IMG/VR virus record: IMGVR_UViG_3300045988_047309
Coordinates: 1 to 64,000 of that record
DNA from: a virus
Length of the DNA stretch: 64,000 bases
Strand: one strand, 5' to 3'
Of the stretch, positions 3,805 to 60,633 are shown piece by piece. The position numbers and the translations under genes were made by a program. Below the pieces are notes generated by a model. It was not told where the DNA came from. It made no database searches and saw only the letters and a program-made list of their open reading frames with translations. Positions within the stretch are counted from its first letter, which is position 1, and every line of letters starts with the position of its first letter.

Positions 3805-6800
3805 ATGCCAATAAATAGTAAGGTTAAGAGACTGTATGATGCCTTGAAGGCTGATGGTGGTGATGTTGGTACACCAGAAGAATTTAACTCTTGGTTCTTT
3901 AAGCCTGGCAAGGAAGGTTACAAAAACAGAAAATCCGTATATGATACCTTCAAGGCTGATGGGGCTGATGTAGGGAAAAACTATGAGGAGTTCGGTAAAT
4001 GGCTTGGCCTTCATGCTGTTTATCCTACCGTAAACAAGTATCACCAGCAGATGCTGAACTCTGTTGACCCAAACAAGAGCAGGGCATCTGAACTTACTCA
4101 TAGAGCGGTTAGTCAGGCAAAAAGAGGAATGAATAATGTCCGTAAGCCTGTCCGTGGTGCTGTAGTCAACAAGCAAGGTAAAAAGGTGAGTGAATTTGAT
4201 ATTACTCCTGCCAAGACCGTAGAAGACCTTGATAGAGAGTATGCTCAGGAGACAACAAAGAACTGGGAGAATGAACTGCATGATCAGATGGCTGATGCCG
4301 ACAAGGATGCAGCAAAGATTAGCGATATGTTCAAGTCCTTCATCGGTTCTATGGATGAGGTCGGTAGCGTGTGGGGTAATATGACAAGAGGTGGCGGTAT
4401 TGCAGGTACTCCTCATAGTGTTACTACCAACAATGGTCTCATGAAGAATACTGAAGCTCGCCAACTTCTTATTGCTGGTGACTACAATCGTAAGAGAAGA
4501 GAACTCTTACAGTTGGAGCAGGATTCAAGAAATGGTGCTTTCTTTGACAATCATTCTTTTTTTAGAGGAATGTATGATGCTGCCAAAGACACTGGTTTCC
4601 TGACAGGTGGGGCTTTTAACCTTATCAGTGGTTTCACCATGCTTAAAACCAAGCAGGACTTGGATAATGGTGTCCATACGAAAGCTGGAGATATGCTGAT
4701 GCAGCAAGCGGTAAAGAATAGTAATGCACAGAGTCAGTATGGTGACAATCAGGGATGGATGTACACTGGTGGTGTTATCACTACCAATATGGCTCCTTTT
4801 ATAGTGCAGATTGCCAGTGCAGGATTCTCCAAGGGTTTGAGTACTTCAATCGGCAAGGTTGTGCAGGGCGCAGCTTCCAAGGTGGCACTGGGTACAATGA
4901 AAAAGGCGGCAGGATTTGCAAGTGCAGATTTGGCTAAGAACATCGGTAAGGTAACTGGTCTTACTACCAAGGCTTTCGGCAAGGCTATCCAGTATGGAAT
5001 CGTGGGTGCAGCCCAAGCTAATACAGTTGGTCTTGGAAATGTTGCTAACGATGTGATTAACCGCTATACGGGTCAGGTCTATCAGGATGAGCAGGGTAAC
5101 TACAAGTTCGGCACATTTGATAGTGATGGTAAACTTGTGCATGAAGGCGGTGAAGACTTCCTTACTGCCTTCGTAAAGGGTGATGCGGCTCAGACCATTG
5201 AGTTTGCTACTGAGTTGGCTGGCGGTGGCATTGATGCTGTGGGTACTGCCCTGAAGAACTTCGTTACCAAAGGTGGCAAGAAAATTATCAACAAGTACAA
5301 CATGGAGAATGTCTCCAAGGTGATAGACTTCTTGCTTAATAATAAAGTGTCAAAGAATGTAAGATATTTGAAGGCTGGTGCTGACAGAACACTTGGTAAG
5401 GTTGAAGTGAATAGTATTGTCGGTGAGTCTCTGGAGGAAGAGTTGGGTATCATCGCCAATACGGTCTTTACTGGTGATAACAAAATCTCAGACTTGTGGG
5501 ATGAAAAGCAGCAGTCACAGATATGGGGCGGTATGCTCTTGTCTATCGGATTGATGAAGGGTGTTGTTGCTCCTTTCCATGCTTATAATGCCAAGCAGTA
5601 TTATTCCTATAAGCATAAGCTAAACAAGGCTGATGTGAACTTGTCTCAGTTGCTCGGTAAAGAGAAGTGGGAAGAACTCCGTAATCAGATTGATGCTACA
5701 ACAAACGAGGATATGCCTGAAATGGTAAACAGAATCAATCGTGATGTTGCTCTTGGTAAGAACAGACAGCCAGTGCGTGAGTATATTCAGAACTTGCTCA
5801 TCATGCGTGGTTATGACATTGGTAATATGCTTGCAGCAAAGAAGGCAGTTGAAGATAAGGGTGAAGGTGTCTCCGTGAAGAATATGGAGAAGAATCAGGC
5901 ATATCAGCAGGGTCGTGATGCTTACGGCTATGATACACATGAGATTCAGTTAGACCAAGAAGACAAACAAAAGTCTCTTGCTCAACTTCTCGGTATATCA
6001 GAGCAGCAGTTGGCATCCATGAGTGATGAGGAGCTTGAATCATTCTCTGGTCGTGATGATAATATTGATAGGGCTATTTATGACTACCAGTTGTCGAGTG
6101 CTCGCTATGAAGGTGTTGTTGATAACGCAAGAGACCAGATAGACTTGGAGGTTCAGAGAGCAGCACAGGCGGTTGATATGTACACAGACAAGTCTCGTAA
6201 TACTATCCGAAACGCTACCATCAAAGCATCAGGCGGCTTGGAAGACTATGGCGTGTATATTATCAGCGGTAATATTGCTACTCATGATGATGGCTCCATT
6301 GATGTAAGCAATAGCGATGATATGATTCTGTATTATGACCCAACTACCAATACTGTTGAGCACGCTGATGCCATGATGTTTGCTGAACTGGGTAGTGAGG
6401 AGAATGCTGATGAAGTGAGAAGTCAGGCTATGGCTGATGCCAAGGAGAAGGCTATCAAAGAAACTACTGGTATCATTGATGGTGTTGTTGAGGTAGGTAC
6501 TCAGTTCAAGACCGTTGGTGCAGATGGAACAGAACATACTTATGAAGTACTCGCTGATAATGGTGATGGTACTGCCATGATTACTATTGATGGCAACATT
6601 CCAACAGAACTTGTCAAGGGTGAGAATGTAAATATTCCAGTCTCGTTTGAAGAGTTGCAGAAGATGAAGGATGAGTCTGACCAGCAGAGATTGCAAGCGG
6701 CAAAGGCTCAGCGTGAACAGGTGGAGAAGGAGCGTGCTGAGCAACAGATGCAAGCACAGACTACACAAGCAGAGAATCCAACTCAGGAAGATAATATCCA

Positions 6801-9800
6801 GTCAACACCTATCGAAGATAACATAGACTACTCTGATATAATCAGAGAGGATGGTAAGGTTCAGATGGTAGATGTTTCTGATAAGGATGGAAATAATCTG
6901 TTCCCTGATGCTAAAGATGTTTTCTATATCCAAGGAAACAAGATGAGAACCAAGTTTGTTTATATTGATGCAAATGGAGAGTTGAAGACTCAGAGTTTCC
7001 CTACTGGATTGGTTAAGATAAAGACAAGGGGTGAAGTATCTGTTGATGATTACAAGAAGTATCGCAATACGTTACTCTCTGCTGAATCTTCTGCCATACC
7101 TGAATCCTCAATGATAGAGGATAATAGTGGCACAATAGAGGCTAATAGAGGTGGAATAGAGGTTGAAGATAACACTCAGCCTTTATCGGAAGCTGATGCT
7201 GACAATGTAATCGCCCAGATGGAATCAAGTGCAGAGACCGCTCCTGATTTGGAACTTACACCAGACAACTGGACAGCAGAGTTTGGTGAAGATGGAATCT
7301 TGTCTACTCCTATAGGTGATGTGAAGATGGGAGAGAATCAGGTGGCTAAGTTGTTTGAGAAAGGTCGTTCCAAGGAGTTTGGTATGATTAAGCCAACGCT
7401 TACGAATCCTGATGTGATAATCGAGGTTCCTTCTCATTCTGCTGATGGCAATGAGGAGCGTTCATCATCTTATCTGTTTATCAAGACTTTCTTGGGTAAG
7501 AATGGCAAAAAGGTGTACTATTTCAAGTCTGTAACCATCAAGAAGGATGGTCTTGAAATCAGCATTAGCAGTAACTATGACAGAGCAAAGAGAGTAAAGG
7601 AGGCATTAATGAAAGGGAAGTTGCTATATCGTAAGAACGATGGCGCACAGACCGAGCAGAACCAGCCTTCTACTTCTGTGGCAACTTCCCAAGAGGATGC
7701 TGCTGGCTCTTCTGAAAGCAAATTTACAAACATTTCTGCAAACGACAATGAAAATAATGAAAGTTTAACATTTGAAGATGGTACTCCTATCCCAGTTGAT
7801 GAGAGTGGTGAGACTGACCTTAGTCAGACTGATGCTGCTCATGCTGCTGAGTGGTATGACAATAACCTCGGTGAGGATGCAGATGATTGGCTGGATGGAG
7901 AAATCAAGAAGGCTAAGAAAGTATTGGAGCAAGCAAAGAATAAGAAGTTGGCTGGCACTAAACCTTCTGAGTTGGTTGCAAGCAAGAAGGAGAAGGAAGC
8001 TGCAATAGCTGATGCCCAAGCACATTATGACTCTGCAATCTCTATCCGTGATTCGTTGAAGGAAAGAAGAATTGCCAAGGAAGAGAATACTGCTGAGGGC
8101 AGAAAGAGTCTCATTGAGAAGGCAAGAAGAAAGTTCACTCGATTGAAGAACAGCGAAGAATGGAGTGAGCGGACTGGTGACTTGTGGAATGAGACGGTTG
8201 GCAAGTTGCTACATCGTCTGTATGATGCTACAGGAATTGATGTTTTCGATGATACTCCTAATACTGTCTATGAGTATGTTGCTGAAAATGTCGGTCCGTA
8301 TAGCTTGAATTATGAAGGCAACGATAATTCGAAGGGAGTACAGCAGGAGACAGGTTTGTCTCGTTCTGACTTCGCCAAGTTAGGATGGCTCGCTGCCGAA
8401 GGCAAGGGTATGACTATTGATGCCAAAGTACACAGACTTTGGGAGAATAGGCCATCCAACTTGGAGAGTGCGGACACGCAGGAGATAAGAAACGCCTTGA
8501 TCAGTCTTATTACAAGCGGTCAGACCGCATTCCAGGCGAGAGATTATATCCTGAATCAGCGTATCGAACTTGCAGAGAGTGCGCTGGAGGAGCAACTGAG
8601 ACAGGAAGAAGATGCGGCCGAAGCTCAGAAGGCTAAGGAGGAGGAAGAAAAGAAAAAGGCTGAGCTGGAGAAGAAAGCAGAGGAGGAGAAGACGAATGAG
8701 AACAGAAATACTCCTGAACTTTCCCATGAACAACAAAAAGCTATGGAAGAGGGCGAGAAATTAGGTTTTCCTGCTGTTGACAAGGAAGGCGAACCTATCA
8801 ATCAGAATGTCATAGAACTTGCTAACTGGGCAAAGGAACAAGGCTTAGAGATAGACCCTACATCTAAGTCGAATAGCTACGCTGATTTGTACGTGATGTG
8901 TAAGGAAGGCTTCGGTGTCAGTACGTTGGTTCCTGATGTTGGCGAGGATATTAATCAGGTATTCTATTTCCCTGACAACGTACAAGGTGAGCAATTAGCT
9001 AAACTGCAAGAGGAATTTAATGTAGGTCGTGACCTTAAACACTCTGCTGATATGAATAGCGAACTAACAGAAGGTGTTATGTTCTATGATGGAGATACAG
9101 CGAGAGAGTTCAGAGATTTTGTTAATGAGAAGGTAAATGAGGAGAGCAAGACTATTGAAGTTCCTGAGGATGCAACGGATGATGCTCCTTTGGGTGAGCA
9201 ACTTGATGAATCCGACCTTCCTTTCTCTGCTAAGGATAACGGCCAACAACAGACAACATCTGAGCGTGCTGCTGACGTAGAGAAGAACAAGGTGGATGAT
9301 ATGAAGGTCGTTGACAACATCGTGGGGCAGAAGACTCGCAAGGCTTTCGATAGGTTAGCTAAGATGATGGGTGCCAACATTCAGTGGCAGTACTCAGACA
9401 AGTTGGGTAACGGCTGGATTCAGGAGACTACGGATGCCGATGGCAACGTGCATCGTACTATCTTCATCACTCTTGACTCTTCTATCACGGAAGGTGCTCA
9501 GTTTATCTTCGGCCACGAAATGACTCACCAAATCAAGAACCTGAACCCTGCTGCATACGATGAGTTGACTCAGCTTGTTCTTGATACCTATGGCTCTGAT
9601 GCCTTCGACAAGGCGGTAGATGAGACCATGCAGAGATATTCTGATGCAGGATTCTCTGGACGTGATAGAGATTACTATGCTGAGGAGGTTGTTGCTGATG
9701 CGGTAGGCGAAATGATTCGTGACCTCAACTTGGCTCACACTCTCGCTATGAAGATGTCTCATCCTCTGCTCGCTGCTATACATGAGATATTGCAGAAGAT

Positions 9801-12800
9801 TAAGTTGGCGTTCTATGGCACTGAGTATAGCGATGCGACCAAGAATATCATCCGCTCCATCGAACAAGCCTATGTGAAGACTGCAAAGGGTCTGGTGGAG
9901 AACTCTGATACTGGCGAAGATGTTTCATTCTCTCTCCGTCAAAAGCCTGAGCCTAAGAAGAAGGGTGTTGGCTACAAGGTGTTCGTATTGAAGGATGGCA
10001 AACTCTATCCGCCAATGGTAGCGAACCCTGATGGTGCTGCTACTCCAGTAGGTGTATGGCTTGATGCTGATGCTGCTCCTATTGCAGGAGAAAGCAAGAC
10101 TGGCAGACCTCAAGTTAAGCAGGGCGGTAAGGGAACACAAGGCGGTAGCGGTAAGTTAGCCTATAGACCAGGATGGCATCTTGGTGTGGTTCCTTACGCT
10201 ATCCAGTTTAACCGCAAGGATGCTGAGGGAAACAAGACTCTCTTCCCTAAGAACTTTGTCTTCGCTGAGGTGGAGTATGCTGCTGATGTAGATTATCAGG
10301 ATGAAGCTCGCCAAGAGGGTATCAATCCTTCGGGCAAGTATCAGCATTCTCTCGCTGGCTTGAAACATCTGCCAACTGATGGATATTATATGTATCGTAC
10401 CAACCCGAACCCTGAGACTGATCCTTGGGTGATTACTGGTGCGATGAAGGTGAACCGTATCTTGACCAGAGCAGAGCAAGCAGACTTGGTAATCAAGGCT
10501 GGACGTGAACCTCAGCAGATTCAGGAGGGTGATATTGTTACTGATGATGTTGTGAACAGCATCAATCAGGAGATAGCTGATGCTCCTAAGTTCTCGTTGA
10601 AGGTATATCATGGCAGCGGTGCTGACTTCACAGAGTTTGACTTCGACCACATGGGCGAGGGTGCTGGCTCCCAAGTATTCGGTTGGGGCGGCTATGTTAC
10701 TTCATCAAAGAAGATTGGTAAGAGCTATGCGAATCTTGTAGATGCTAACGCTCCTTATCAAGATGTAGAATATGTTGGTAATAACGCTCATGAATATACT
10801 GATATAGTTGCTGGCTTGTTTAATGGTGGTCAGAGAGATTATGATGATGTTAAGGAGTTCTTGCAGAATGGCTATAATTCCGACAAGGATAATGCTCGGA
10901 AGAAACAGATGTTGGAATGGTTTGAAAGTACAAAACCATCTGATTGGAAGTCTGTTAATGATGGAAAACGTAACCTCTATGAAGTGGATATTCCTGATGA
11001 CAATGGCAGCAACTATCTGGATTGGGAAAATCCTTTGAATGAGGAACAGATAAATGCTATTCGTGATGCTTTGGCTAAGAATGGTGTTGATGTTTCATCT
11101 TGGGAAAATAGAGGTTTCAAACTGGATTTGCCTTTTAAAGATGTATATGCAGCAGTTCTTCCAATGATGATGCGTTGTGAGCCAAAGGAAGTAAGCAAGT
11201 TCCTCTCTTCTCTTGGTTTTACTGGCATTAAATATCCTGCTGGTACTATCCAAGGTGGCGCAGAGGAAGGCGATACCAACTATGTTATTTTCAAGCCTGA
11301 GGATATGAAAATTACTCAGCATACCAAGTTCTCTCTCCGTTTGAAGGCTGCTATTGAGGAAACAGAAACCAATCCATCTGACGCACAGAAGGAGAGTGGC
11401 AACTACAAGAAGGGACACATCAAGTTCGGTGGCTACGATTACACAATAGAAAATCCAAAGGGTTCAACTCGTTCAGGCAAGGATGCCGATGGCAAAGAGT
11501 GGAAAATAACCATGCACGATACCTATGGCTATATCCGTGGTAAGTTCGGTAAGGATGGCGACCATCTGGATATGTTCATCAACGACAAGGCAGACCTTGA
11601 TAATTGGAATGGTGATGTGTTTGTCGTTGACCAAGTGAATCCTGATGGCTCATTTGACGAACACAAGGTGATGTACGGATATGACTCTATGGATGATGCA
11701 GAAAAGGCTTATCTCGCCAACTATAGCGATGGTTGGCAGGGTCTTGGAAATATTACTGGAGCAAGTAAGGATGAGTTCGATAAGTGGCTTGATACGAGCA
11801 ATCGTAAGCTAAAGCCGTTTGCTGACTATGCAAAGGTGAAGTTTTCTCATGCGCAGTCTGTTTCTAAACCTCGTTACTCGTTGAAGGACATAAAGCCTAT
11901 TGGTGTTGGTGCTTTTGGAAATATATACAATCAGTTCCGTGGCAAATCTAAAGCAGCTATAGAGTTCTTGAAGAAACTTGGTAGCGGTGAGGCAACTGCT
12001 GCTTTACATCATCATACTATTGGTGATATATCTTTGGTATGGGGAGATAAAAAGGCTGGTCTTGATAAGATTCTAAGAAAGCATCCTGAGGTTGTTGATA
12101 ATTTGCAGTCTATCATAGATAGTATGGAGGTTGTTCAAGAAAGCGATAATCGTGTCAAGTTGGAATCGCCTACACACTTTGCTGTAGTAAGTAAGGAGTA
12201 TAAGGGCGAACCAAGAGAACAATGGTTATTGACTGCATACGAAAAAAGAGAATCCTTGGAAAATGACAAGAGTATGGACACTGCCACTTCTTCGTTGGGA
12301 GGTGACACAGCTCTCTCCCAATCCAAGGGTTCTGCTGCAAAGATAGACAATTCTTCTGAAACAGCCAAGGAAAATGGCGAAAAGTTTTCATTGAAGGATG
12401 AGAAGACTCTTGCAGGAGTTCATAACATTACAGAGGAGAAGCTGAGAAAGGCTATCAAGCAGGGTGGTCTTGCCAATCCGTCTGTGGCAGTTATTGATTC
12501 CAGTAAGCAGAACCATGAGGACTATGGTGACATTTCTCTGATATTGCCTTCTGAAAAGGTGGCCAAGAGAACTGGAAAGAACGCTGGCACTTGGCAGGGC
12601 GATGCTTGGACGCCTACCTATCCGCAAGTAGAGAGACAGATGAGCAATAATGGGGCTGCAAAAGCATCTAAGGATGTTAGTTCTGTCCCTGGCGATATGT
12701 ATAACGAGGTAAGAAGAGGACTTGACCGATGGCTGGATGGTGGAGAAGGAAACTCTGCTATGGCTTATATTTTCCTTCACGAAAAGGGTGTGGCACCTGA

Positions 12801-15800
12801 ACCGAAGAAGATTCAGCATAAGTTTAGTGATGACGTATATAACGAGTTGAAGTCTATTACTGCTGGAGACTTCAATATCTATGGTATCGGAAAGGCTGAT
12901 GCCCAGAAAGTATTGGGTATGTACATTGATGCCAAGTTTGATGGCGATAAGGATTTGTATGAGGAGAAGACCAAGGCTTGGTTGGAAAGAAACAAGTCTA
13001 TCGTTGATGCTGGTAATAAGGGTGGAATGAGATATACCATTGCCAAAGAGAATGTTGAACTATACGATGAATATGGTTTCAACTATAAGAGTGTGCAGAC
13101 TTTCGTCCGTGATGTAGAGTATGACCATCGCAAGACAGGTGTTGACATGAATGCCACGCTTAATGATGTTGAAGACTACATTAAGACCAATAACCTGACG
13201 GATGAATTCAATACTTGGCTGGAAGGTAAAGAAAAGGAGTATGGTATTAAGGAGGTAATCTTTGATGGCTTCACTCCAAGCGGCAATCGTAGATATGTAC
13301 CAAACACCTTGGAGAATGTTTCCAAGATAATGAAGAAACAAGGCAGAAATGGTGCAACTGGAATATCGGTATCTTTCCAAAACTTCGCTGCAAGTTTGAT
13401 GCCTTCTTATGGAACATTGAAGGATATTCGCTCCAAGAAAGGCTTGTTGACTTCTGATCATGAGGATTTAGATAAGTTCAACGAAAAGTGGTCTAAAGTA
13501 TTCTTTGAACTTGGCATGAAGTGCCAGCCTGATGCAACTGGAACTTTTGATGATTATGGTTTGGCAAGGCTCTCTGAGGCGGCAAAGACAAGTGATCCAC
13601 AAGCCTATTTGAAGAAGGAGTACAATGTGGACTTCTCAGATGGGGATACGAAACGTTTGAAGGAAATGGTTAAGGCTATCAAGGAAGAGTCCCCAGCCAT
13701 GTACTTTGAAACAAAGTTTGAACGTCCTGTTGGCTTTAACGAGTTCTCTTCTGCTGTGGTCCCAACAACGGCAAGTGACGAGGTTAAGCAGGCTTTGCAG
13801 AATGCTGGTGTTCAGATTTACGAGTACGATAAGGAGAAGGAAGGAGACCGCAGTCGTGCCTTCAATGAAGCTATCAACGGTAGTGACAATATTCGTTTCT
13901 CTCTGAAATCAATGATGGAGAAACCTGAGGGATGGAAACAAGCCAACAAGAAGGCTATACATATTGCAGAAGCTATAGAGCGTGACCCTAAGTTCTCCTT
14001 GAAGAACCTTGATGGCACTCTCATTAAGGCAGGAACCTATTTCAGTGGTGGTGGTCTTGTTGAGGAAGGCTTGAAGGGTATCATCGACCCAGTGGTGGCA
14101 GTGGAGTATGACGAGAAGATAAGCGGTGTATATCGCAATAACTTCGGGCAGCACATCGTTACTGCTGATGTTCGTGATGTTGACCCTAAGGAGTTGGTGA
14201 AGCAGATAGATGGCGAGGTGGAGTACTTCCATGCCAGCCCAGTCTGCAAGAACTACTCTCAGGCGAAGAGTAACCATGCAGAGGTGGAACTTGACAAGGA
14301 GACTGCTGCAAGTACTGCCGAGTTTATCAATGCTATTAAGCCAAAGGTGGTGACCATTGAAAACGTGAAGGGATATAAGGATTCGGAAGCGATGAAGATT
14401 ATCACGGATGCCCTGGATGCCAACGGTTATACTTGGGATGCAGATGTGTATAATGCTGCTGACTATGGCGGCTACACCAACCGAGAGAGGTTGATTGTCC
14501 GTGCGGTTCGTGATGGTAAACTCCCTGAAAAGCCAAAGAAGATGGCACACAAGAGCGGATGGTATGAAGCTGTGGCTGATATTATCCCGACCCTGACCGA
14601 GAAGAAGAATGGTGTGGCTCCTTGGATGGATATTCGCTTGAAGGCTGATGGTATTGACTGGAGAAACATTGACAAGCCATTGTATGTGATGGGTAGTGCT
14701 TATGCTGATGGCAAGATTCCTCATGCTTTTGCTGACGAACTCCTGCCAACACTCAGAACCAAGAGTGGTGATGTGATTGTTATGCCTGATGGCAAGGTAT
14801 ATCGTGCTATGGGCAGAGTGCTCGCAAGAGTATCAGGAGTGAGCGATGATTACAAGATGCCATTCTCCGAGAACCTGAGCCATACCATCATCGGTAATGG
14901 AATACCTACCCAGTTGACGGAACATGTGATTGCTCCTCTTTTGCAGAACACCTTGCGCCCAACTACTCCTGATGATGGTAATACCAAGTTCTCTCTCCGT
15001 GGCTCCACACCTTACGACAAGCAGATGGAAGAGTGGATGGAGAAGAACCATTTAGAAAAGGGTGCTGTTCCTATGGAAAAACCTGTCATGAAGGAAGGTG
15101 AGAACATTTTTGATTATGCCAACAGAATGGTAGAGTGGACTCGCAATCAGAACTTGTGGAAGACCGCTCCTAAGCAGACTGGATTCCAAGATGCACTCGA
15201 CAAGTGGAAGGCTGACAATGGTCTTTCTCCTGATGCTTATCCACCTGTCCGTCCTCATCGTGAAAACTATTCAACAGAAATCGGTTATACAGAAGACTTG
15301 GAGGAGTACAACAAGAAGAAAGAACTCTGGAAGTCTGCTCCAAAGCCAAAGGACTTTGATTTGTCCGTTGACTTGGAGGATATGAACAAGCAGCTTCGTA
15401 ATATCAGAAGAGCGGTTCTGAATCAGAAGAACTATGACCAGAGAACGGTTAAGGCGGTATCTGACCTTGTAAGAAAGATGCTCAACATTGGATGGGGTGA
15501 CGGATTGAGCAGGGGTAAGGTAGGCAACCTTCTCTCTGCTGCCAAGAATGCCACTGGAGCCAATGACGTGAAGAAGTATCTCGACAAGGCTATGGGAATC
15601 CTTGCTGAAAACTATCTCAACCGTCTCTCTACTGCCTACGACAACCTTATCAATACCAGGGGTGCAAGGGCAGACCAGAGCGGTGTGATTAAGATGGGTT
15701 CTCTTGATGCCAAGGGTCAGGCTTTCATGAGCGAGTATAAGAAGGCTATCAATATGGATGATAGCTCTCTGAATACCTATATAGCAAACATTGAGGAAGA

Positions 15801-18800
15801 TTCTGCCAAGAATGAAGATAATGTGGAAATGAATGACTACAGACTGGCTGGTATTCAAGCTGCCATCATGTATAAGCAGCAGATTGGCGGCAATGATGCC
15901 GATATTTCCGAGTTGAAGAGACAGATTGGTGAGTTGAAGAATAAGAAGGATGCTACCAAGGAAGACAAGGATTTGTTGAAGTCCTTGGAAAAGAAACTCT
16001 TTGAGAATAAGTTTGACCGCATCACCATGTACGAGAATCTTCTGAATAATATTCAGAGAATGGTGAAGGAGAGTAAGGGTAGGGCAAAGGAGTTCCGAGA
16101 GGAGATTACTGAGCACAAGAATGAAATCCTGCATCGTGCCAACTTGGATTTGGAAGGTGTGGATTCTGCCTATTATGATACCACAACTGCCAAGAAGAAG
16201 TTTGTGAATAATCCTATTCTCCGTTTCGTCATGTCTTCAACATACACATTTGAGCAGTTCTTGAAGTTCTTTGGCAGACATCATGCAAATGGTGAAGGCT
16301 ATCTCTACAACTACTTTATGTCTGAATGGCAGGATGCAGCAGACGAACAGCAGTTGTATAATGAAATGAACCGCAATGCCCTTGATGAGAAGACCAAGGA
16401 GTTGTTCGGCAAGAAGAACTTCACAAAACTGGTAGGTATTGATGGCAAGGGTATGAAGGAAATGGACGTTGAGGTTACTGACTACTCCAACAAGGAGACT
16501 GGTAAGCGAACCATCCATCTGAAACAAGGTCAGATGCTCTATATCTATCTGGTCAATAAGGAGACTGATGGAGAAATGAAACTCCGTGCTATGGGTATCA
16601 CAGAGGAAAAAGTGGCTGAAATCGAGGAAAATCTTGACCCAAGAGTGAAGGCTATTGGTGAGTGGTTGCAGGATGAATATCTTCCTGAATGTCAGAGAAG
16701 ATACCAAGCTACCCATACCAAGTACTTCGGTGCTCCTATGAAGGAGGTGGAGAACTATTTCCCTCTTGCCATCAATAACCGGGCAAGAAATATCAGGGAA
16801 GATTTGAATCAAGATACTGATGCAATAAGTCGATTGGCTGGTACTTCTACTGGTGCTATTATTACACGAAGGGTGAACGTAATTCCTCTTGATATAGAGA
16901 ATGCCGATGCTTTTGCGGTTGCCTTCAACCATCTGGATGAAATGGAAGAGTGGTCTGCTTACTTGCCATTTATACAAGATGTCAACACCTTACTCTCTTC
17001 TACTCATTTCAGAAATCAGGTAATGAACATGTCTTCTGCTGCCTACGGAAGTGGTAAAACCTTATGGGAGGAGTTTAAGAAAGTGGCTCAGATTGCTGCT
17101 GGAACATACAAGCCAAAGGTTGACAATGGTATGATGGATAGCAAGATTGCTGCTGTTGTCGGTGGTATTGCTACCGCAAAGATTTCAGGTCGTTTGTGGA
17201 CTGCCTTTAAACAAACTCAGTCTGCAACCACGTTCCTTACTGAATGTGACCCAGCTAGATTCTTGTGGTATGGTGTTAACCCATACGGCTCATGGCATTG
17301 GGCTTATGATAACCTTCCATTGTTCCGTAAGCGTGTAGAGCAGTTGACTGCTGGTGATGTAAAGGTAAGACAATTCTTGGATGAGTTAGAGAAATACCAT
17401 GACTGGACAAAGACTATTGCAAAGGTTGGTATGTCTCCTAATATACTTGTTGACTCTGTAACTTGTGCGGTTGGTGCTCGTTCCGTTTATGAGACTGAAT
17501 TGAATAAACTGACCAAGTTGGGCTATTCAAAAGATAAGGCAGAGGAGAAGGCTATACAAAAGGCATCGCTTTCATACAATAAGACTCAGCAATCGTCTGA
17601 GGGTGCTTTCTTATCTCCAATGCAGGTTGATAGAACATACGTATCTGCTGCTTTGTCGCTCTATAAAAATGCTAACTATGCTTATGGTAGAAAGAAGATT
17701 GAAGCAATTAGAGGTATAGCCAAGACGTATAGATTCTGGGGTGAACATAAAAATGCCATGATTGGTTCAATGACAAGACAGATTATGGATGAGGATGGTC
17801 TTGATGAAAATGTTGCTAATGCTATCGCAAAAAGAGCATATACAAGAACATTTTGGTATAATATAGGTACGCTCCTGAATTACATGACTATCGTTCCGAT
17901 TTCTTGGGCTGCATACAAGGTGCTTCTATATCTCCTGAATGGTGATGATGATGACAAGAAAAAGAAGATGATTGAGGAAGCGTGCTTAAAAGGATTTGCT
18001 ACCACAACATTTGATGATTATGTGATTCCGTTTGCTTCAAATGTCCTGAATGCAGGATTGAACATAGAAGATGGCAAGATAGGTTTTGATACTGATGTTT
18101 TCAAGTATCAGAATTTATATATCAACCCAGCTACATCTGACTTGTCGAATATCTATTCTATGATAGGTAATCAGAAATGGTGGTCTGCTGGCAACAAATT
18201 CGGTATGCTTGGCATTCAGATGCTCGTAGGATTCAATCCTGAGACCATAGGAGCACTCTATCAGGCTTACGATGAGTTTGATAAGGATAGCGGTAATATG
18301 CCATTGGAGATTAAACTTGCCGTATTGAAGTCTATAAGTGCCCCTGAGGAGAGTATAAGAGGTCTCTATATGGATGAACTCGGTCTTGATAATGAGGATA
18401 GAACCAAGGTTCCATTGTCGGTACTGGAGCAGAGATATGCCGAGAGACAGATTAATCGTGACAACCTTCTGTCTCAGATTGCCATGCCGAAGGAAACTTT
18501 TGATGGCTATGTTGAAAAGTACAAAAAGTCTTTCGAGAAGAAGATTCAGGATAAGATGGATAAGATGGATGCTTACGACCAGAGGAAGTTTGATGCTATC
18601 TTTGATACTACTACAGACCCTGCATTGAAGGGTATGATGGAAAAGAAACGTACCAAGGATGCCAATGCTGCTGCTGACGAGCAGATAGCAAAGGAAGGTC
18701 TGAATCAAGAGAAGAAGGGTAAGGAGCCTAGCGAAGAAGCTTACGATGCAGTAAAGATGTCTATTGATGTGGCGGAAGATAATGCTATCAGTACCTACAA

Positions 18801-19065
18801 TAAGGTGCTCAACAAGCGATACGCTGCCCTGAATGATGAGTACAACAATCAGACAGATGCAATGAAGTACATCTTTATGAGTAAGCATCCAAACTTCAAG
18901 GCATACAAGGATTTGGAATCTGAATATACCACGTATGGCAAGAAGATGAAGGAGTTGAAGGAAAAACTGGTTTCTGCTGACGGATATGATGCCAAGCAGA
19001 CAATCCTGAAACAGATACGTGCCGAAAGAGAGAAGTTCAGTGAACTGCAATCCAAGGTAAGATAA
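3805..19065 (+). CDS. giant polyvalent protein (5,086 aa)
   Basis: Single uninterrupted ORF. Contains an HEMTH zincin motif, a DGDHLD pyrophosphatase-like motif and C5-MTase motifs I/IV/VI/VIII/X. A recurrent KFSL[KR] linker separates the modules. The C-terminal ~1,350 aa carry a hydrophobic helix. Confidence 0.9.
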   Translation: MPINSKVKRLYDALKADGGDVGTPEEFNSWFFKPGKEGYKNRKSVYDTFKADGADVGKNYEEFGKWLGLHAVYPTVNKYHQQMLNSVDPNKSRASELTHRAVSQAKRGMNNVRKPVRGAVVNKQGKKVSEFDITPAKTVEDLDREYAQETTKNWENELHDQMADADKDAAKISDMFKSFIGSMDEVGSVWGNMTRGGGIAGTPHSVTTNNGLMKNTEARQLLIAGDYNRKRRELLQLEQDSRNGAFFDNHSFFRGMYDAAKDTGFLTGGAFNLISGFTMLKTKQDLDNGVHTKAGDMLMQQAVKNSNAQSQYGDNQGWMYTGGVITTNMAPFIVQIASAGFSKGLSTSIGKVVQGAASKVALGTMKKAAGFASADLAKNIGKVTGLTTKAFGKAIQYGIVGAAQANTVGLGNVANDVINRYTGQVYQDEQGNYKFGTFDSDGKLVHEGGEDFLTAFVKGDAAQTIEFATELAGGGIDAVGTALKNFVTKGGKKIINKYNMENVSKVIDFLLNNKVSKNVRYLKAGADRTLGKVEVNSIVGESLEEELGIIANTVFTGDNKISDLWDEKQQSQIWGGMLLSIGLMKGVVAPFHAYNAKQYYSYKHKLNKADVNLSQLLGKEKWEELRNQIDATTNEDMPEMVNRINRDVALGKNRQPVREYIQNLLIMRGYDIGNMLAAKKAVEDKGEGVSVKNMEKNQAYQQGRDAYGYDTHEIQLDQEDKQKSLAQLLGISEQQLASMSDEELESFSGRDDNIDRAIYDYQLSSARYEGVVDNARDQIDLEVQRAAQAVDMYTDKSRNTIRNATIKASGGLEDYGVYIISGNIATHDDGSIDVSNSDDMILYYDPTTNTVEHADAMMFAELGSEENADEVRSQAMADAKEKAIKETTGIIDGVVEVGTQFKTVGADGTEHTYEVLADNGDGTAMITIDGNIPTELVKGENVNIPVSFEELQKMKDESDQQRLQAAKAQREQVEKERAEQQMQAQTTQAENPTQEDNIQSTPIEDNIDYSDIIREDGKVQMVDVSDKDGNNLFPDAKDVFYIQGNKMRTKFVYIDANGELKTQSFPTGLVKIKTRGEVSVDDYKKYRNTLLSAESSAIPESSMIEDNSGTIEANRGGIEVEDNTQPLSEADADNVIAQMESSAETAPDLELTPDNWTAEFGEDGILSTPIGDVKMGENQVAKLFEKGRSKEFGMIKPTLTNPDVIIEVPSHSADGNEERSSSYLFIKTFLGKNGKKVYYFKSVTIKKDGLEISISSNYDRAKRVKEALMKGKLLYRKNDGAQTEQNQPSTSVATSQEDAAGSSESKFTNISANDNENNESLTFEDGTPIPVDESGETDLSQTDAAHAAEWYDNNLGEDADDWLDGEIKKAKKVLEQAKNKKLAGTKPSELVASKKEKEAAIADAQAHYDSAISIRDSLKERRIAKEENTAEGRKSLIEKARRKFTRLKNSEEWSERTGDLWNETVGKLLHRLYDATGIDVFDDTPNTVYEYVAENVGPYSLNYEGNDNSKGVQQETGLSRSDFAKLGWLAAEGKGMTIDAKVHRLWENRPSNLESADTQEIRNALISLITSGQTAFQARDYILNQRIELAESALEEQLRQEEDAAEAQKAKEEEEKKKAELEKKAEEEKTNENRNTPELSHEQQKAMEEGEKLGFPAVDKEGEPINQNVIELANWAKEQGLEIDPTSKSNSYADLYVMCKEGFGVSTLVPDVGEDINQVFYFPDNVQGEQLAKLQEEFNVGRDLKHSADMNSELTEGVMFYDGDTAREFRDFVNEKVNEESKTIEVPEDATDDAPLGEQLDESDLPFSAKDNGQQQTTSERAADVEKNKVDDMKVVDNIVGQKTRKAFDRLAKMMGANIQWQYSDKLGNGWIQETTDADGNVHRTIFITLDSSITEGAQFIFGHEMTHQIKNLNPAAYDELTQLVLDTYGSDAFDKAVDETMQRYSDAGFSGRDRDYYAEEVVADAVGEMIRDLNLAHTLAMKMSHPLLAAIHEILQKIKLAFYGTEYSDATKNIIRSIEQAYVKTAKGLVENSDTGEDVSFSLRQKPEPKKKGVGYKVFVLKDGKLYPPMVANPDGAATPVGVWLDADAAPIAGESKTGRPQVKQGGKGTQGGSGKLAYRPGWHLGVVPYAIQFNRKDAEGNKTLFPKNFVFAEVEYAADVDYQDEARQEGINPSGKYQHSLAGLKHLPTDGYYMYRTNPNPETDPWVITGAMKVNRILTRAEQADLVIKAGREPQQIQEGDIVTDDVVNSINQEIADAPKFSLKVYHGSGADFTEFDFDHMGEGAGSQVFGWGGYVTSSKKIGKSYANLVDANAPYQDVEYVGNNAHEYTDIVAGLFNGGQRDYDDVKEFLQNGYNSDKDNARKKQMLEWFESTKPSDWKSVNDGKRNLYEVDIPDDNGSNYLDWENPLNEEQINAIRDALAKNGVDVSSWENRGFKLDLPFKDVYAAVLPMMMRCEPKEVSKFLSSLGFTGIKYPAGTIQGGAEEGDTNYVIFKPEDMKITQHTKFSLRLKAAIEETETNPSDAQKESGNYKKGHIKFGGYDYTIENPKGSTRSGKDADGKEWKITMHDTYGYIRGKFGKDGDHLDMFINDKADLDNWNGDVFVVDQVNPDGSFDEHKVMYGYDSMDDAEKAYLANYSDGWQGLGNITGASKDEFDKWLDTSNRKLKPFADYAKVKFSHAQSVSKPRYSLKDIKPIGVGAFGNIYNQFRGKSKAAIEFLKKLGSGEATAALHHHTIGDISLVWGDKKAGLDKILRKHPEVVDNLQSIIDSMEVVQESDNRVKLESPTHFAVVSKEYKGEPREQWLLTAYEKRESLENDKSMDTATSSLGGDTALSQSKGSAAKIDNSSETAKENGEKFSLKDEKTLAGVHNITEEKLRKAIKQGGLANPSVAVIDSSKQNHEDYGDISLILPSEKVAKRTGKNAGTWQGDAWTPTYPQVERQMSNNGAAKASKDVSSVPGDMYNEVRRGLDRWLDGGEGNSAMAYIFLHEKGVAPEPKKIQHKFSDDVYNELKSITAGDFNIYGIGKADAQKVLGMYIDAKFDGDKDLYEEKTKAWLERNKSIVDAGNKGGMRYTIAKENVELYDEYGFNYKSVQTFVRDVEYDHRKTGVDMNATLNDVEDYIKTNNLTDEFNTWLEGKEKEYGIKEVIFDGFTPSGNRRYVPNTLENVSKIMKKQGRNGATGISVSFQNFAASLMPSYGTLKDIRSKKGLLTSDHEDLDKFNEKWSKVFFELGMKCQPDATGTFDDYGLARLSEAAKTSDPQAYLKKEYNVDFSDGDTKRLKEMVKAIKEESPAMYFETKFERPVGFNEFSSAVVPTTASDEVKQALQNAGVQIYEYDKEKEGDRSRAFNEAINGSDNIRFSLKSMMEKPEGWKQANKKAIHIAEAIERDPKFSLKNLDGTLIKAGTYFSGGGLVEEGLKGIIDPVVAVEYDEKISGVYRNNFGQHIVTADVRDVDPKELVKQIDGEVEYFHASPVCKNYSQAKSNHAEVELDKETAASTAEFINAIKPKVVTIENVKGYKDSEAMKIITDALDANGYTWDADVYNAADYGGYTNRERLIVRAVRDGKLPEKPKKMAHKSGWYEAVADIIPTLTEKKNGVAPWMDIRLKADGIDWRNIDKPLYVMGSAYADGKIPHAFADELLPTLRTKSGDVIVMPDGKVYRAMGRVLARVSGVSDDYKMPFSENLSHTIIGNGIPTQLTEHVIAPLLQNTLRPTTPDDGNTKFSLRGSTPYDKQMEEWMEKNHLEKGAVPMEKPVMKEGENIFDYANRMVEWTRNQNLWKTAPKQTGFQDALDKWKADNGLSPDAYPPVRPHRENYSTEIGYTEDLEEYNKKKELWKSAPKPKDFDLSVDLEDMNKQLRNIRRAVLNQKNYDQRTVKAVSDLVRKMLNIGWGDGLSRGKVGNLLSAAKNATGANDVKKYLDKAMGILAENYLNRLSTAYDNLINTRGARADQSGVIKMGSLDAKGQAFMSEYKKAINMDDSSLNTYIANIEEDSAKNEDNVEMNDYRLAGIQAAIMYKQQIGGNDADISELKRQIGELKNKKDATKEDKDLLKSLEKKLFENKFDRITMYENLLNNIQRMVKESKGRAKEFREEITEHKNEILHRANLDLEGVDSAYYDTTTAKKKFVNNPILRFVMSSTYTFEQFLKFFGRHHANGEGYLYNYFMSEWQDAADEQQLYNEMNRNALDEKTKELFGKKNFTKLVGIDGKGMKEMDVEVTDYSNKETGKRTIHLKQGQMLYIYLVNKETDGEMKLRAMGITEEKVAEIEENLDPRVKAIGEWLQDEYLPECQRRYQATHTKYFGAPMKEVENYFPLAINNRARNIREDLNQDTDAISRLAGTSTGAIITRRVNVIPLDIENADAFAVAFNHLDEMEEWSAYLPFIQDVNTLLSSTHFRNQVMNMSSAAYGSGKTLWEEFKKVAQIAAGTYKPKVDNGMMDSKIAAVVGGIATAKISGRLWTAFKQTQSATTFLTECDPARFLWYGVNPYGSWHWAYDNLPLFRKRVEQLTAGDVKVRQFLDELEKYHDWTKTIAKVGMSPNILVDSVTCAVGARSVYETELNKLTKLGYSKDKAEEKAIQKASLSYNKTQQSSEGAFLSPMQVDRTYVSAALSLYKNANYAYGRKKIEAIRGIAKTYRFWGEHKNAMIGSMTRQIMDEDGLDENVANAIAKRAYTRTFWYNIGTLLNYMTIVPISWAAYKVLLYLLNGDDDDKKKKMIEEACLKGFATTTFDDYVIPFASNVLNAGLNIEDGKIGFDTDVFKYQNLYINPATSDLSNIYSMIGNQKWWSAGNKFGMLGIQMLVGFNPETIGALYQAYDEFDKDSGNMPLEIKLAVLKSISAPEESIRGLYMDELGLDNEDRTKVPLSVLEQRYAERQINRDNLLSQIAMPKETFDGYVEKYKKSFEKKIQDKMDKMDAYDQRKFDAIFDTTTDPALKGMMEKKRTKDANAAADEQIAKEGLNQEKKGKEPSEEAYDAVKMSIDVAEDNAISTYNKVLNKRYAALNDEYNNQTDAMKYIFMSKHPNFKAYKDLESEYTTYGKKMKELKEKLVSADGYDAKQTILKQIRAEREKFSELQSKVR
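9235..9927 (+). other. zincin-like metallopeptidase module of the giant protein
   Basis: FIFGHEMTHQ (HEMTH at 9514-9528) with downstream EEVVADAVGE. Bounded by PFSAK and SFSLR linkers. Confidence 0.7.
11341..11874 (+). other. inorganic-pyrophosphatase-like module of the giant protein
   Basis: YTIENPKGS...YGYIRGKFGKDGDHLDMFI...DEHKVMYGY. DGDHLD (11554-11571) fits the PPase D-x-D-x-x-D signature apart from His at position 4. Confidence 0.6.
11887..12384 (+). other. small module, tentatively a Barnase/EndoU/RelE-like nuclease domain as found in polyvalent proteins
   Basis: GDISLVWGDKKAGLDKILRKHPEV...FAVVSKEY...WLLTAYEK pattern. This is recollection of the family only and needs a profile search. 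Confidence 0.3.
14005..14988 (+). other. DNA (cytosine-5) methyltransferase module of the giant protein
   Basis: YFSGGG (motif I, 14038-14055), HASPVCKNYS (motif IV, Cys codon at 14245), TIENVKG (VI), TNRERLIV (VIII), IGNGIP (X). Confidence 0.8.
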
Positions 19066-59124: not shown

Positions 59125-59466
59125 TTAGTTAGTTACACAGATGTCGCAGTCACACGTCCATCCATTGCACTCCTTGATGAGCTTCTTGATTCGCTTGTTG
59201 TTTGGGTCTGATTCCAACTCACCTTGCAGTCTTTTTTTCAACTCTTTGATGAGGTCTAAAGGTGTCATGTAGTCTTCAATGAGGTCTTGCTTGATGCCTT
59301 CCTCATCATCGGAAGAAGAGGTAACCGTAAACGACTTGTCGAGCGTGAATGATGCCGTAACATCGTAGTCCTGATACTCAGGATATTCAGGCTGATTGTA
59401 AGGTGCGAATGGGTCGTTTGCTGCGCCTGGTGGATAATTTCCACTTGTTGAATTGTTCATAAGCAT
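59125..59466 (-). CDS. hypothetical acidic protein (113 aa) with C-terminal CxC..C
   Basis: First ORF after the terminator at 59490-59523. Confidence 0.5.
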   Translation of the reverse strand: MLMNNSTSGNYPPGAANDPFAPYNQPEYPEYQDYDVTASFTLDKSFTVTSSSDDEEGIKQDLIEDYMTPLDLIKELKKRLQGELESDPNNKRIKKLIKECNGWTCDCDICVTN

Positions 59467-59489
59467 AATATTTTAATTGTTTGGCTTTC

Positions 59490-59523
59490 AAAATAAACCC
59501 CACGATTCTCACGAATGGTGGGG
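59490..59523 (-). terminator. intrinsic terminator closing the tRNA / structured-RNA unit
   Basis: CCCCAC..GTGGGG plus ATTC/GAAT stem (59498-59523). On the minus strand it is followed by TTTATTTT. Confidence 0.65.
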
Positions 59524-59597
59524 GAAAATTTTAAATATTTATAAGTTGAGCGGTCGCTACCGCAAAAATGTAAATGTATAGAAATATGATATATCAG

Positions 59598-59998
59598 CGA
59601 AAAAGGGAGCATGTTCCCAGGCTTTTAATTCCATTCATGCTCCCAAAGACACAAGTCGGGCCACGCTTTCGCCTAAGGACATGTGTCTTTAAGTTCCCTT
59701 CTGCATTCCATTGGAGGCTTAGGACTCCCAGTGCTATGTTTCGTACTGGCTGCATTAGAACTTTATTGTAGTTGTGCGCTCCTGCCATTGTGCTACCTCT
59801 TACAAGGGTCTCGGCATCAGGCCTGCTTCTTCACAAGTGAACTCCAAGACGTTCCCAATTCCACCTGTTGCGGTGTAGGTAATAGTCCTGCCACTTCCTC
59901 GTCTAATCGTATGTTGTGGTTGCATACGCTGCTTTTGACTACGAGTACCTCTCAAGGAAGGTTTATCCTATCCGAAACAATGCCTCGGTATCGGGCTT
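59598..59998 (-). ncRNA. candidate large structured RNA (~400 nt) directly 3' of the tRNA
   Basis: No credible ORF and visibly GC-richer than the flanks. Two abutting perfect 9-bp helices (59605-13/59636-44 and 59645-53/59682-90), further 5-6 bp hairpins, and TTTTT after the last helix. Confidence 0.4.
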
Positions 59999-60077
59999 TG
60001 GGACGCAAGGTGGGACTCGAACCCACGACCTCGAAGGATAGGGAACCTTCTGTTCTACCAACTGAACTACTTGCGTC
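59999..60077 (-). tRNA. non-canonical tRNA: His-like G-1:C73 acceptor, encoded CCA, 8-nt anticodon loop UUCCCUAU
   Basis: Hand fold: G-1, ACGCAAG/CUUGCGU acceptor, canonical D arm (GUUC AGUUGGUA GAAC), anticodon stem GAAGG/CCUUC with an 8-nt loop, 6-nt variable region, T arm GUGGG UUCGAGU CCCAC, then C73 and CCA. Confidence 0.7.
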
Positions 60078-60318
60078 AAAGAACAACTACAAAACAATAC
60101 AGGATATTGTGGTGGGTGGAAGTAGTGAGCTTCAAAAAACCTCCACGGATATGACTGATTAATAACGAACTTGATATATTCCTATGAACTTTTGAGGTTC
60201 ACCCACCTTGTTGTTACTTACCCCATTCTTTGAAGGAGCTGTATATCTCGTTGATCAATACGCAAAGCGTTGCGATTGATAATATTAACATGATTGTCGA
60301 AAACATATTCTAATTTTA

Positions 60319-60633
60319 TTAATGTGTTGAACAATAGGCTGCTGCCTCTGATTCTATCTCTGTCATGCTCTTGGAGCGGTTCTGCATCATCCAGTCCTCT
60401 AACTCGCTCTTCTTGAAGTAGAGTCGATTGACGTTCGGCTTGTAGCAAGGTAGGATATGATTTCTTACGTTCATTCTGACTCCTTCTACAGTCATGCCGA
60501 GTATAAATGCAGCTTCCTTGATGTTGAGCATTGACTTAGCTGCTATCATCGAATACTGCTCGATGCGGTCTAACTGCTCTTTAATCTGTGGGTCTATCAT
60601 ATCAGTTGAATTTGATGGTTTACTGACAGGCAC
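60319..60633 (-). CDS. excisionase-family (MerR-like) HTH protein
   Basis: LNIKEAAFILGMTVEGVRMNVRNHILPCYKPNVNRLYFKKSELEDWM. Confidence 0.65.
   Translation of the reverse strand: MPVSKPSNSTDMIDPQIKEQLDRIEQYSMIAAKSMLNIKEAAFILGMTVEGVRMNVRNHILPCYKPNVNRLYFKKSELEDWMMQNRSKSMTEIESEAAAYCSTH

Follow-up and report, generated by a model that had tools for sequence, protein, structure and literature searches.

Introduction

In MALAT1-mascRNA and in plant tRNA-snoRNA precursors, the end of an RNA is defined by an adjoining transfer RNA (tRNA) or tRNA-like fold, to which RNase P or RNase Z is recruited, and in the 3'ETS-leuZ sponge of E. coli the trailer of a tRNA precursor has a function of its own. Engineered cassettes (RGR, PTG guide-RNA arrays and Tornado) place a tRNA and/or a self-cleaving ribozyme on the flanks of an RNA, giving it exact ends with any promoter or terminator. 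Among phages and prophages, the structured RNAs GOLLD and ROOL tend to adjoin tRNAs and may be co-transcribed with them (PMC5737381), and theta ribozymes, which are minimal relatives of the hepatitis delta virus (HDV) ribozyme, abut tRNA genes of gut Caudoviricetes and cut at the tRNA 3' end (PMC10879173). The chemistry of another small ribozyme, the twister, is well understood, but its biological role in bacteria and phages is still described as undetermined (PMC6765202). Here we describe a locus in positions 1 to 64,000 of IMG/VR virus record IMGVR_UViG_3300045988_047309 (the whole 64-kb stretch is called the window) in which a tRNA-like element, a structured RNA of about 242 nucleotides (nt), a predicted twister ribozyme, an accessory hairpin and a probable terminator follow one another.

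We propose that these parts form a self-contained noncoding RNA operon of a temperate Prevotella/Segatella phage, in which twister cleavage and further processing would free a trans-acting RNA, and we put the probability of this reading at roughly three in four. The parts themselves, their order, their conservation, the covariation within both the RNA and the ribozyme, and the conserved order of the neighboring genes are direct observations.

Results

The most informative feature of the locus is the twister ribozyme. It is absent from an earlier note on this DNA, which had marked positions 59490-59998 as one helix-rich RNA of 400-500 nt, lacking an open reading frame (ORF), that was fused to the 3' side of a tRNA. 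The neighboring genes and the tRNA are all on the minus strand, and the noted interval therefore lies downstream of the tRNA. In Rfam permissive mode the type-P1 twister model (RF03160) aligned from end to end (all 68 model positions), at an E value of 3e-8 in the local search and 1.8e-6 in that of the whole window, and this was the only significant non-tRNA RNA match in the window. The score of 44.2 bits is below the Rfam gathering score of 67.2. The twisters of relatives (40-66 bits) are likewise below it, and because even near-consensus phage twisters (53.9-66.1 bits) fail to reach 67.2, we call this threshold very strict.

The anatomy of the predicted ribozyme is complete. All helices are present in the order P1, P2, (P3), P4 with the UAA internal loop, as are the core nucleotides UAA, GCC, GUCCNAAGCC, AA and GANGG. 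Only two core positions depart from the consensus (C to U in the loop, G to A in GAGGG), and they pair with each other in the pseudoknot T1. This pseudoknot is complementary in all 74 distinct copies (CCU/AGG in 65, UCU/AGA in 5 and CAC/GUG in 4), and clades D and E, two divergent groups of relatives, carry the canonical CCC/GGG as a fourth version. Both T2 dinucleotides are present and invariant among the copies. Covariation extends to P1 (GUUC/GAAC, GUUU/AAAC, GGUU/AACC), P3 (AGCAC/GUGCU, AGUGC/GCACU) and P4 (GGA/UCC, GUA/UAC). P3 is variable: in most relatives it holds an AT-rich insertion of about 70 nt and in clade D the whole stem is absent, and such variation is the expected behavior of an optional twister P3. 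Judged by sequence, the predicted twister is real as a member of its class. Two clade D contigs (L363, 10327..10426 on the minus strand, and L368) carry a tandem pair of complete twisters directly after the structured RNA.

The structured RNA upstream of the twister, which we call the cargo, is modeled with 14 helices, two of which are pseudoknots. Its 5' domain consists of helix Ha (a simple hairpin made by the first 27 nt), an H-type pseudoknot (Hb/Hc) and a three-way junction (Hd/He/Hf) with a hairpin loop that pairs downstream to form the second pseudoknot (PK2). In the 3' domain, Hg encloses Hh/Hi and H11 encloses H12-H14. The conserved fold has a length of about 242 nt, with a range of 238-266 nt in the divergent clades.

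RNAalifold, applied to 39 sequences aligned with MAFFT, predicted 52 pairs, 12 of them with compensatory changes, and the 14-helix structure was then curated. The alignment made by MAFFT only (A1) has compensatory changes at 14 of 56 pairs, 99.3% of its cells are paired, and it scores 0.189 for covariation, compared with 0.078 in shuffles (0/500) and 0.008-0.024 with slid partners. MAFFT misaligned the 3' domain of the divergent clades, and clades D and E were therefore aligned to a newly built covariance model (A4). The earlier note had suggested that homologous phage loci be compared for covariation, and it is present: across the five clades of A4, 23 of the 56 proposed pairs show compensatory changes with 97.9% of cells paired, although these counts overstate the number of independent events, the sequences being related and A4 being fitted to the model. 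The A4 score is 0.288, against 0.120 in shuffles (0/500) and 0.010-0.056 with slid partners. One covariance model (R1, 47 pairs) had Hc one column off (4 pairs), and pair counts were taken from the corrected structure. A naive all-against-all covariation scan was swamped by phylogenetic signal; helix-stack filtering and controlled pair counts were used instead.

Both pseudoknots are among the covarying helices. In pseudoknot 1, one Hb pair is A-U, G-C or C-G in three clades, and one Hc pair changes from U-A to A-U in L096. In PK2, 10 of 35 sequences have U-A in place of C-G; they represent at least four lineages (L013/L020, L167, L110 and clade D), and all cells are paired. Hb and PK2 were left out of the covariance model, yet they are paired in 98-100% of cells, and because neither Hb nor Hc was correctly specified in that model, the pair counts of pseudoknot 1 did not arise from the model fit. 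In the long-range helix H11, UUGUG/CACAA is replaced by AGGUG/CACCU in clade E and by.GGUG/CACC. in clade D, and hairpin Hf has five covarying pairs.

The support for a structured RNA beyond chance is thus comparative, and comes from neither base composition nor folding energy. The GC enrichment that the earlier note saw by eye is unremarkable (0.452 in the interval vs a window mean of 0.425 +/- 0.046, with 30% of equal-sized windows equally GC-rich). Its claim that no credible ORF lies between 59466 and 60319 was borne out: the sole long ORF (59683..60162, plus strand, 159 amino acids) is antisense to the tRNA and is not conserved in relatives. Across 110 relatives, no conserved ORF was found in the 240-nt core, where the longest stop-free stretch is 32-79 codons and varies in frame and strand. 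Nor did 59300..60400 give any Rfam match at E <= 10 to GOLLD, ROOL, HEARO, HDV (including at the tRNA 3' end), hammerhead, T-box or riboswitch models. On this evidence the predicted cargo is a new RNA family without an Rfam counterpart.

One further pairing touches both the cargo and the ribozyme. The invariant cargo segment UUGGAGUU (59847..59840) could pair with AGUUCUAA (59762..59755), which covers the 5' strand of twister P1 and the predicted cleavage site. The pairing is G.U-rich and without covariation, and clade E keeps only part of it; it may be due to chance, or may be an alternative fold by which cleavage is delayed.

The tRNA-like element has the acceptor, D and T arms of a cloverleaf, scores 53 bits with the Rfam tRNA model and is the sole match at curated Rfam thresholds. 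ARAGORN calls it a tRNA with the 4-base anticodon 'ccct'; its anticodon loop has 8 nt, in contrast to the 7-nt loop and 3-base anticodon of a decoding tRNA. Among otherwise near-identical relatives (homologous positions in L001-L217 and L361-L369), this loop is hypervariable. The 81 distinct variants of the main family comprise 12 with a canonical 7-nt CAU loop, 62 with an 8-nt loop (12 different 4-base 'anticodons', including cccc, tatg, cttc and ccat) and 7 that are not recognized as tRNA, their anticodon arm being replaced, in some by a short stem. The loop is 11 nt in clade D and 10 nt in clade E, and the clade D element has neither a CCA nor an Rfam tRNA match. Across relatives the T loop is conserved, while the stems of the acceptor and T arms covary. 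RNase P, RNase Z and the CCA-adding enzyme recognize a tRNA by its acceptor, T and D arms. Because the acceptor/T half is kept while the anticodon loop varies, we infer that the element is a 5' processing or stability handle rather than a decoder.

Further upstream, all main-family clades have a conserved U6 run and a small hairpin 40-100 nt from the tRNA (60138..60118 in the window, minus strand). Its stem GRAR/YUYC covaries (GAAG/CUUC, GGAG/CUCC, GGAA/UUCC) around an invariant loop, UUYRCUA; it is present as a single copy in the window, matches no Rfam family, and may belong to the same transcript or act as a regulatory site.

Table 1. Features of the RNA locus and the helices named in the earlier note (window coordinates).
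Feature	Position	Strand	Details
tRNA-like element	60076..59999	-	acceptor, D, T arms; encoded CCA; 8-nt anticodon loop (UUCCCUAU)
Structured RNA (cargo)	59998..59757	-	about 242 nt; 14 helices, 2 of them pseudoknots; no Rfam family
Pseudoknot 1	59970..59947	-	UAGGA (59970..59966)/UCCUU (59958..59954); ACCU (59962..59959)/AGGU (59950..59947)
Pseudoknot 2 (PK2)	59919..59891	-	loop CCAC (59919..59916)/GUGG (59894..59891)
Type-P1 twister ribozyme (RF03160), predicted	59761..59693	-	Rfam covariance-model alignment
Twister P1	59761-58/59696-93	-	
Twister P2		-	UGCA/UGCA
Twister P3	59748-43/59734-29	-	6 bp
Twister P4		-	GGA/UCC
Twister loop	59725..59716	-	GUCCUAAGCC
Twister T1	59723-21/59699-97	-	CCU with AGG
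Twister T2	59750-49/59718-17	-	GC with GC
Accessory hairpin	59690..59645	-	abuts ribozyme; outer stem AAAGACACA/UGUGUCUUU, inner GC-GAAA-GC
Hairpin and U-run, probable terminator	59644..59600	-	GGGAGCAUG, 22-nt loop, CAUGCUCCC, UUUUU
Second conserved hairpin	59523..59490	-	CCCCAC..GUGGGG, inner AUUC-GUGA-GAAU, U-run; hairpin proper 59523..59498
Helix GGGAGCATG/CATGCTCCC	59605-13/59636-44		belongs to predicted terminator hairpin
Helix AAAGACACA/TGTGTCTTT	59645-53/59682-90		belongs to accessory hairpin
Helix CGTATG/CATACG	59908-13/59923-28		
Helix CCAGT/ACTGG			twister stem P3
GAAA-capped stem GC-GAAA-GC	59672..59665		

All the helices named in the earlier note are present (Table 1), and so are its two T-runs, one after 59605 and one after the hairpin at 59523..59498. 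In 500 nt, chance would give about 0.003 pairs of perfect 9-bp inverted repeats that abut each other (4^-9 x ~20,000 placements each). The two found here, which the note had taken as a sign of an ornate RNA, turn out to be the accessory hairpin and the probable terminator instead. The outer stem of the accessory hairpin covaries among clades (AAGACAC, GGAGCGA and UAGUUGA types); L016 and L026 have lost the hairpin, and clade D has a different one in its place. The element behind it, a hairpin at 59644..59605 followed by U5, has a stem that covaries in four versions and a U-run that is always present, and is probably the intrinsic terminator of the RNA operon. A simple terminator scan missed both minus-strand hairpins, owing to the 22-nt loop of one and an internal mismatch in the other.

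The second conserved hairpin lies outside the structured RNA, 24 nt upstream of the ATG of the next gene at 59466. It is conserved in all five clades, with compensatory changes in the stem and an invariant apex (UUCGUGAGAA, with a GUGA tetraloop), and it is kept even where the downstream gene differs. A near match to the Bacteroidetes -7 promoter box overlaps its U-run. Termination, attenuation and a place in the promoter region are possible roles.

Relatives were retrieved through the flanking proteins and two invariant 15-17-mers, and the cargo was matched by nhmmer. The cassette or its cargo occurs in more than 170 IMG/VR contigs from human-gut viromes, and a scan of species-representative bacterial genomes placed the cargo in two, the Segatella copri HDE04 chromosome and an uncultured Prevotella assembly. 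We take the host to be Prevotella/Segatella and the phage to be temperate because the cassette is found in these genomes. A pattern designed to exclude the main family yielded nine metagenome contigs, which form the divergent clades D and E; among 50,697 GenBank phage records, blastn in distant mode gave no match to the region.

The window and clades D and E have one gene order in common: an Ant anti-repressor, a helix-turn-helix (HTH)/Xis-like protein, the RNA module, a small variable ORF, Erf or another exonuclease (single-strand annealing protein/exonuclease) and a RecE-like exonuclease. The RNA operon thus sits between regulatory genes (Ant, HTH/Xis-like) and recombination genes (Erf, RecE-like). 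Elsewhere in this phage of about 65 kb, the structural region holds a single ORF of 5,086 amino acids (3805..19065, plus strand).

Two pattern scans of IMG/VR sampled 219 twister-like elements. A general linkage between tRNAs and twisters was rejected, as 194 of the 219 have no same-strand tRNA in their locus; the linkage is confined to a few architectures. The layout of a tRNA, 241-251 nt and a twister occurs in three sequence-unrelated groups, namely the main family, a tRNA-Met (CAU) group that we call family 2 (L273, L298, L306, L312, L315, L346 and L358) and a tRNA-Ile (GAU) group (L255/L474). In L248, a canonical tRNA is followed by about 340 nt of unrelated sequence and then a type-P1 twister. 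The middle RNAs of these other loci may likewise be phage RNAs that a ribozyme matures. By chance, about 0.06 such tRNA-to-twister spacings are expected among 219 twisters. The cargo covariance model found no homology to the cargos of family 2 or L248, even with filters off.

Other arrangements were seen as well. In six loci (L266, L294, L320, L343, L347 and L275) the twister P3 is replaced by a complete tRNA-Ile-like cloverleaf and a strong hairpin precedes the ribozyme; L266 also has a drum RNA (RF02958) adjoining tRNAs. L271 and L319 have the reverse of the window's order, with a type-P1 twister and then, about 30 nt on, a tRNA-like element with an 8-nt loop ('gaag'). Twisters with a UGCA P2 (TAATGCAGCC...AATGCAGA; L370-L489) are very abundant in viral contigs, often with 2-4 per contig and most without a nearby tRNA.

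Discussion

The mechanism that we propose is inferred from sequence in four respects: self-cleavage, termination, processing by RNase P and RNase Z, and action in trans. Hypothetically, one transcript would carry all five modules and end at the terminator. Twister ribozymes cleave 5' of the conserved A in the UAA loop (Roth et al. 2014, crystal structures); by analogy, the predicted cleavage site here lies between U59757 and A59756. Once folded, the twister would cut itself at this site and shed a 157-nt tail made of ribozyme and terminator, and the cut would set the 3' end of the cargo, leaving the upstream RNA with a precise end that bears a 2',3'-cyclic phosphate, as follows from twister chemistry. 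RNase P cleavage at the tRNA-like element would set the 5' boundary, and an RNase Z-type cut at 59999/59998 may free the cargo from that element. The compact, end-protected RNA would then act in trans; the most plausible role is that of a scaffold or a protein-binding RNA, early in infection or in lysogeny.

Several points weigh against this operon reading, in addition to the low ribozyme score and the relatedness of the aligned sequences. The P3 stem of the window's twister holds one A.C mismatch. In the cargo, Hg, H13 and most of Ha are invariant and thus only predicted, H12 is missing from clades D and E or cannot be aligned there, and the 242-nt core folds no better than shuffled sequence (z = -0.29). 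An encoded CCA, which the window has, is an anti-determinant for RNase Z in some bacteria, and the separation of the tRNA-like part from the cargo is uncertain because the CCA may block this enzyme. That so many anticodon loops are exactly 8 nt long could be a mark of selection, perhaps for quadruplet decoding, and not of decay; other candidate causes include deliberate inactivation and an arms race with anticodon nucleases. No promoter was identified with confidence for the operon: upstream of the tRNA there is no exact match to the Bacteroidetes-type promoter TAnnTTTG, only a conserved TGTTTT motif 20-35 nt away. Finally, we found no partner protein or target. A search with PHROGs and Pfam for phage RNA enzymes or a partner (ligase, RtcB, reverse transcriptase, Ro60 or nuclease) returned nothing, and a search of the window for a second copy, a template repeat of a diversity-generating retroelement (DGR) or an internal target gave only chance-level matches of 12-19 nt.

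How do other explanations compare? The tRNA could itself be the product, as a decoder or as a quadruplet or frameshift suppressor, with the 240 nt and the twister serving as a regulated 3' trailer that controls its maturation. A logic of this kind has been proposed for theta ribozymes, which adjoin tRNAs in phages of Bacteroidota (PMC10879173); family 2 (Met-CAU) and L255 (Ile-GAU) have canonical tRNAs upstream, and the main-family loops hold largely to 8 nt instead of taking random lengths. However, a twister cut 242 nt from the tRNA 3' end cannot create the mature end of a tRNA, and the intervening RNA has a pseudoknotted fold of its own that is kept by covariation. Where the tRNA is non-decoding, with a loop of 10-11 nt or a lost arm (clades D and E and the 7 unrecognized variants), the RNA and the twister are nevertheless intact. 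We consider a pure trailer role unlikely because the ribozyme cuts so far from the tRNA and the RNA survives where the tRNA has decayed.

Much less probable is the explanation offered in the earlier note, a single large ornate RNA of the GOLLD or ROOL kind that spans all 400-500 nt and is co-transcribed with the tRNA. The interval does have many helices, and its position beside a tRNA in a temperate phage does resemble the setting of these RNAs (PMC5737381). One part of the claim stands, that structured noncoding RNA lies directly 3' of the odd tRNA, as shown by the common strand, the absence of a promoter-like break between the two and the covariation. The size does not: the interval divides into a 242-nt fold, the twister, an optional hairpin that some relatives have deleted, the terminator and the upstream region of the next gene. 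The predicted twister cleavage would moreover cut the interval in two, and the Rfam searches returned none of the suggested families.

We give very little credence to the interval being a cis-regulatory leader, or a ribozyme-based expression switch, for the 113-amino-acid gene downstream. That gene follows directly in the same orientation, with the second conserved hairpin before its ATG, and the weak alternative pairing UUGGAGUU/AGUUCUAA overlaps twister P1 and the cleavage site. This role is improbable because a probable terminator intervenes between the RNA and the gene, and because clades that share the conserved RNA have different genes there, with three unrelated N-termini; a fold of 240 nt with two pseudoknots is also far larger than known leaders of that kind. 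It is extremely improbable that the conservation stems from a small protein-coding ORF or from a DGR template repeat, since the 159-amino-acid antisense ORF that does exist is unconserved, the substitutions are pairwise compensatory and not three-periodic, and the region has no second copy within the window.

The new RNA family is common in Prevotella/Segatella phages of the human gut, and experiments are feasible, as S. copri HDE04, a cultivable lysogen, appears to carry the cassette. The hypervariable anticodon loop of the handle might record an arms race with tRNA-targeting host nucleases. We also put forward, as a tentative idea that is possible but has the odds against it, that a tRNA or tRNA-like element, an RNA of about 240-270 nt and a twister form a general, undescribed natural cassette for exactly trimmed, end-protected phage RNAs. 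Such a cassette would give twister ribozymes a defined biological role, and would make its cargos new classes of functional RNA, such as protein decoys that counter host defence, or assemblies built of RNA only, as with ROOL and GOLLD. Among the papers in the collection that we searched, none links twister ribozymes with tRNAs in phages.

Comparison with known systems

The twister belongs to a known class, while the composite of tRNA-like element, RNA, twister and terminator is a new form of ribozyme- and tRNA-assisted RNA processing. Relative to RF03160, the element order is the same (P1, UAA, P2, GCC, P3, P4 loop GUCCNAAGCC, AA, P2', GANGG, P1'), the T1 pseudoknot can form and T2 may do so, P3 varies or is dispensable, and the setting is phage-associated. 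The window's copy differs in its score below the gathering threshold and in a T1 of CCU/AGG rather than CCC/GGG. It differs too in its position, between a covariation-supported RNA and its terminator, which suggests a concrete and testable job, forming the 3' end of a structured noncoding RNA and removing the terminator.

Theta ribozymes of gut Caudoviricetes resemble this arrangement in that a small self-cleaving ribozyme is linked to a phage tRNA gene in Bacteroidota phages, with an implied role in RNA end formation (PMC10879173). Whereas theta ribozymes cut at the tRNA itself, the twister here is of another class and lies 242 nt downstream, with a structured RNA in between. GOLLD and ROOL are multi-domain ornate RNAs of about 580-800 nt and the cargo has about 242 nt; they match it in neither sequence nor structure, and a search of the whole window (E <= 0.05) found neither RNA. 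No flanking ribozyme is known for them, and their hosts are mainly Firmicutes and others, in contrast to Prevotella here. Compact, highly conserved bacterial and phage RNA motifs likewise have their own terminators behind them, but their models do not match the cargo and no ribozyme stands between RNA and terminator.

The tRNA-like processing of MALAT1-mascRNA and plant tRNA-snoRNA precursors uses protein enzymes at both ends, whereas the 3' end here would be made by a ribozyme, and the cargo is much larger and more structured than small RNAs of the 3'ETS kind. The tRNA-like partner looks like a tRNA gene turned into a processing or stability module, and in this it mirrors the guide-RNA cassettes of synthetic biology. 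Those cassettes are engineered; the phage cassette is natural and evolutionarily conserved, and embodies the same design idea.

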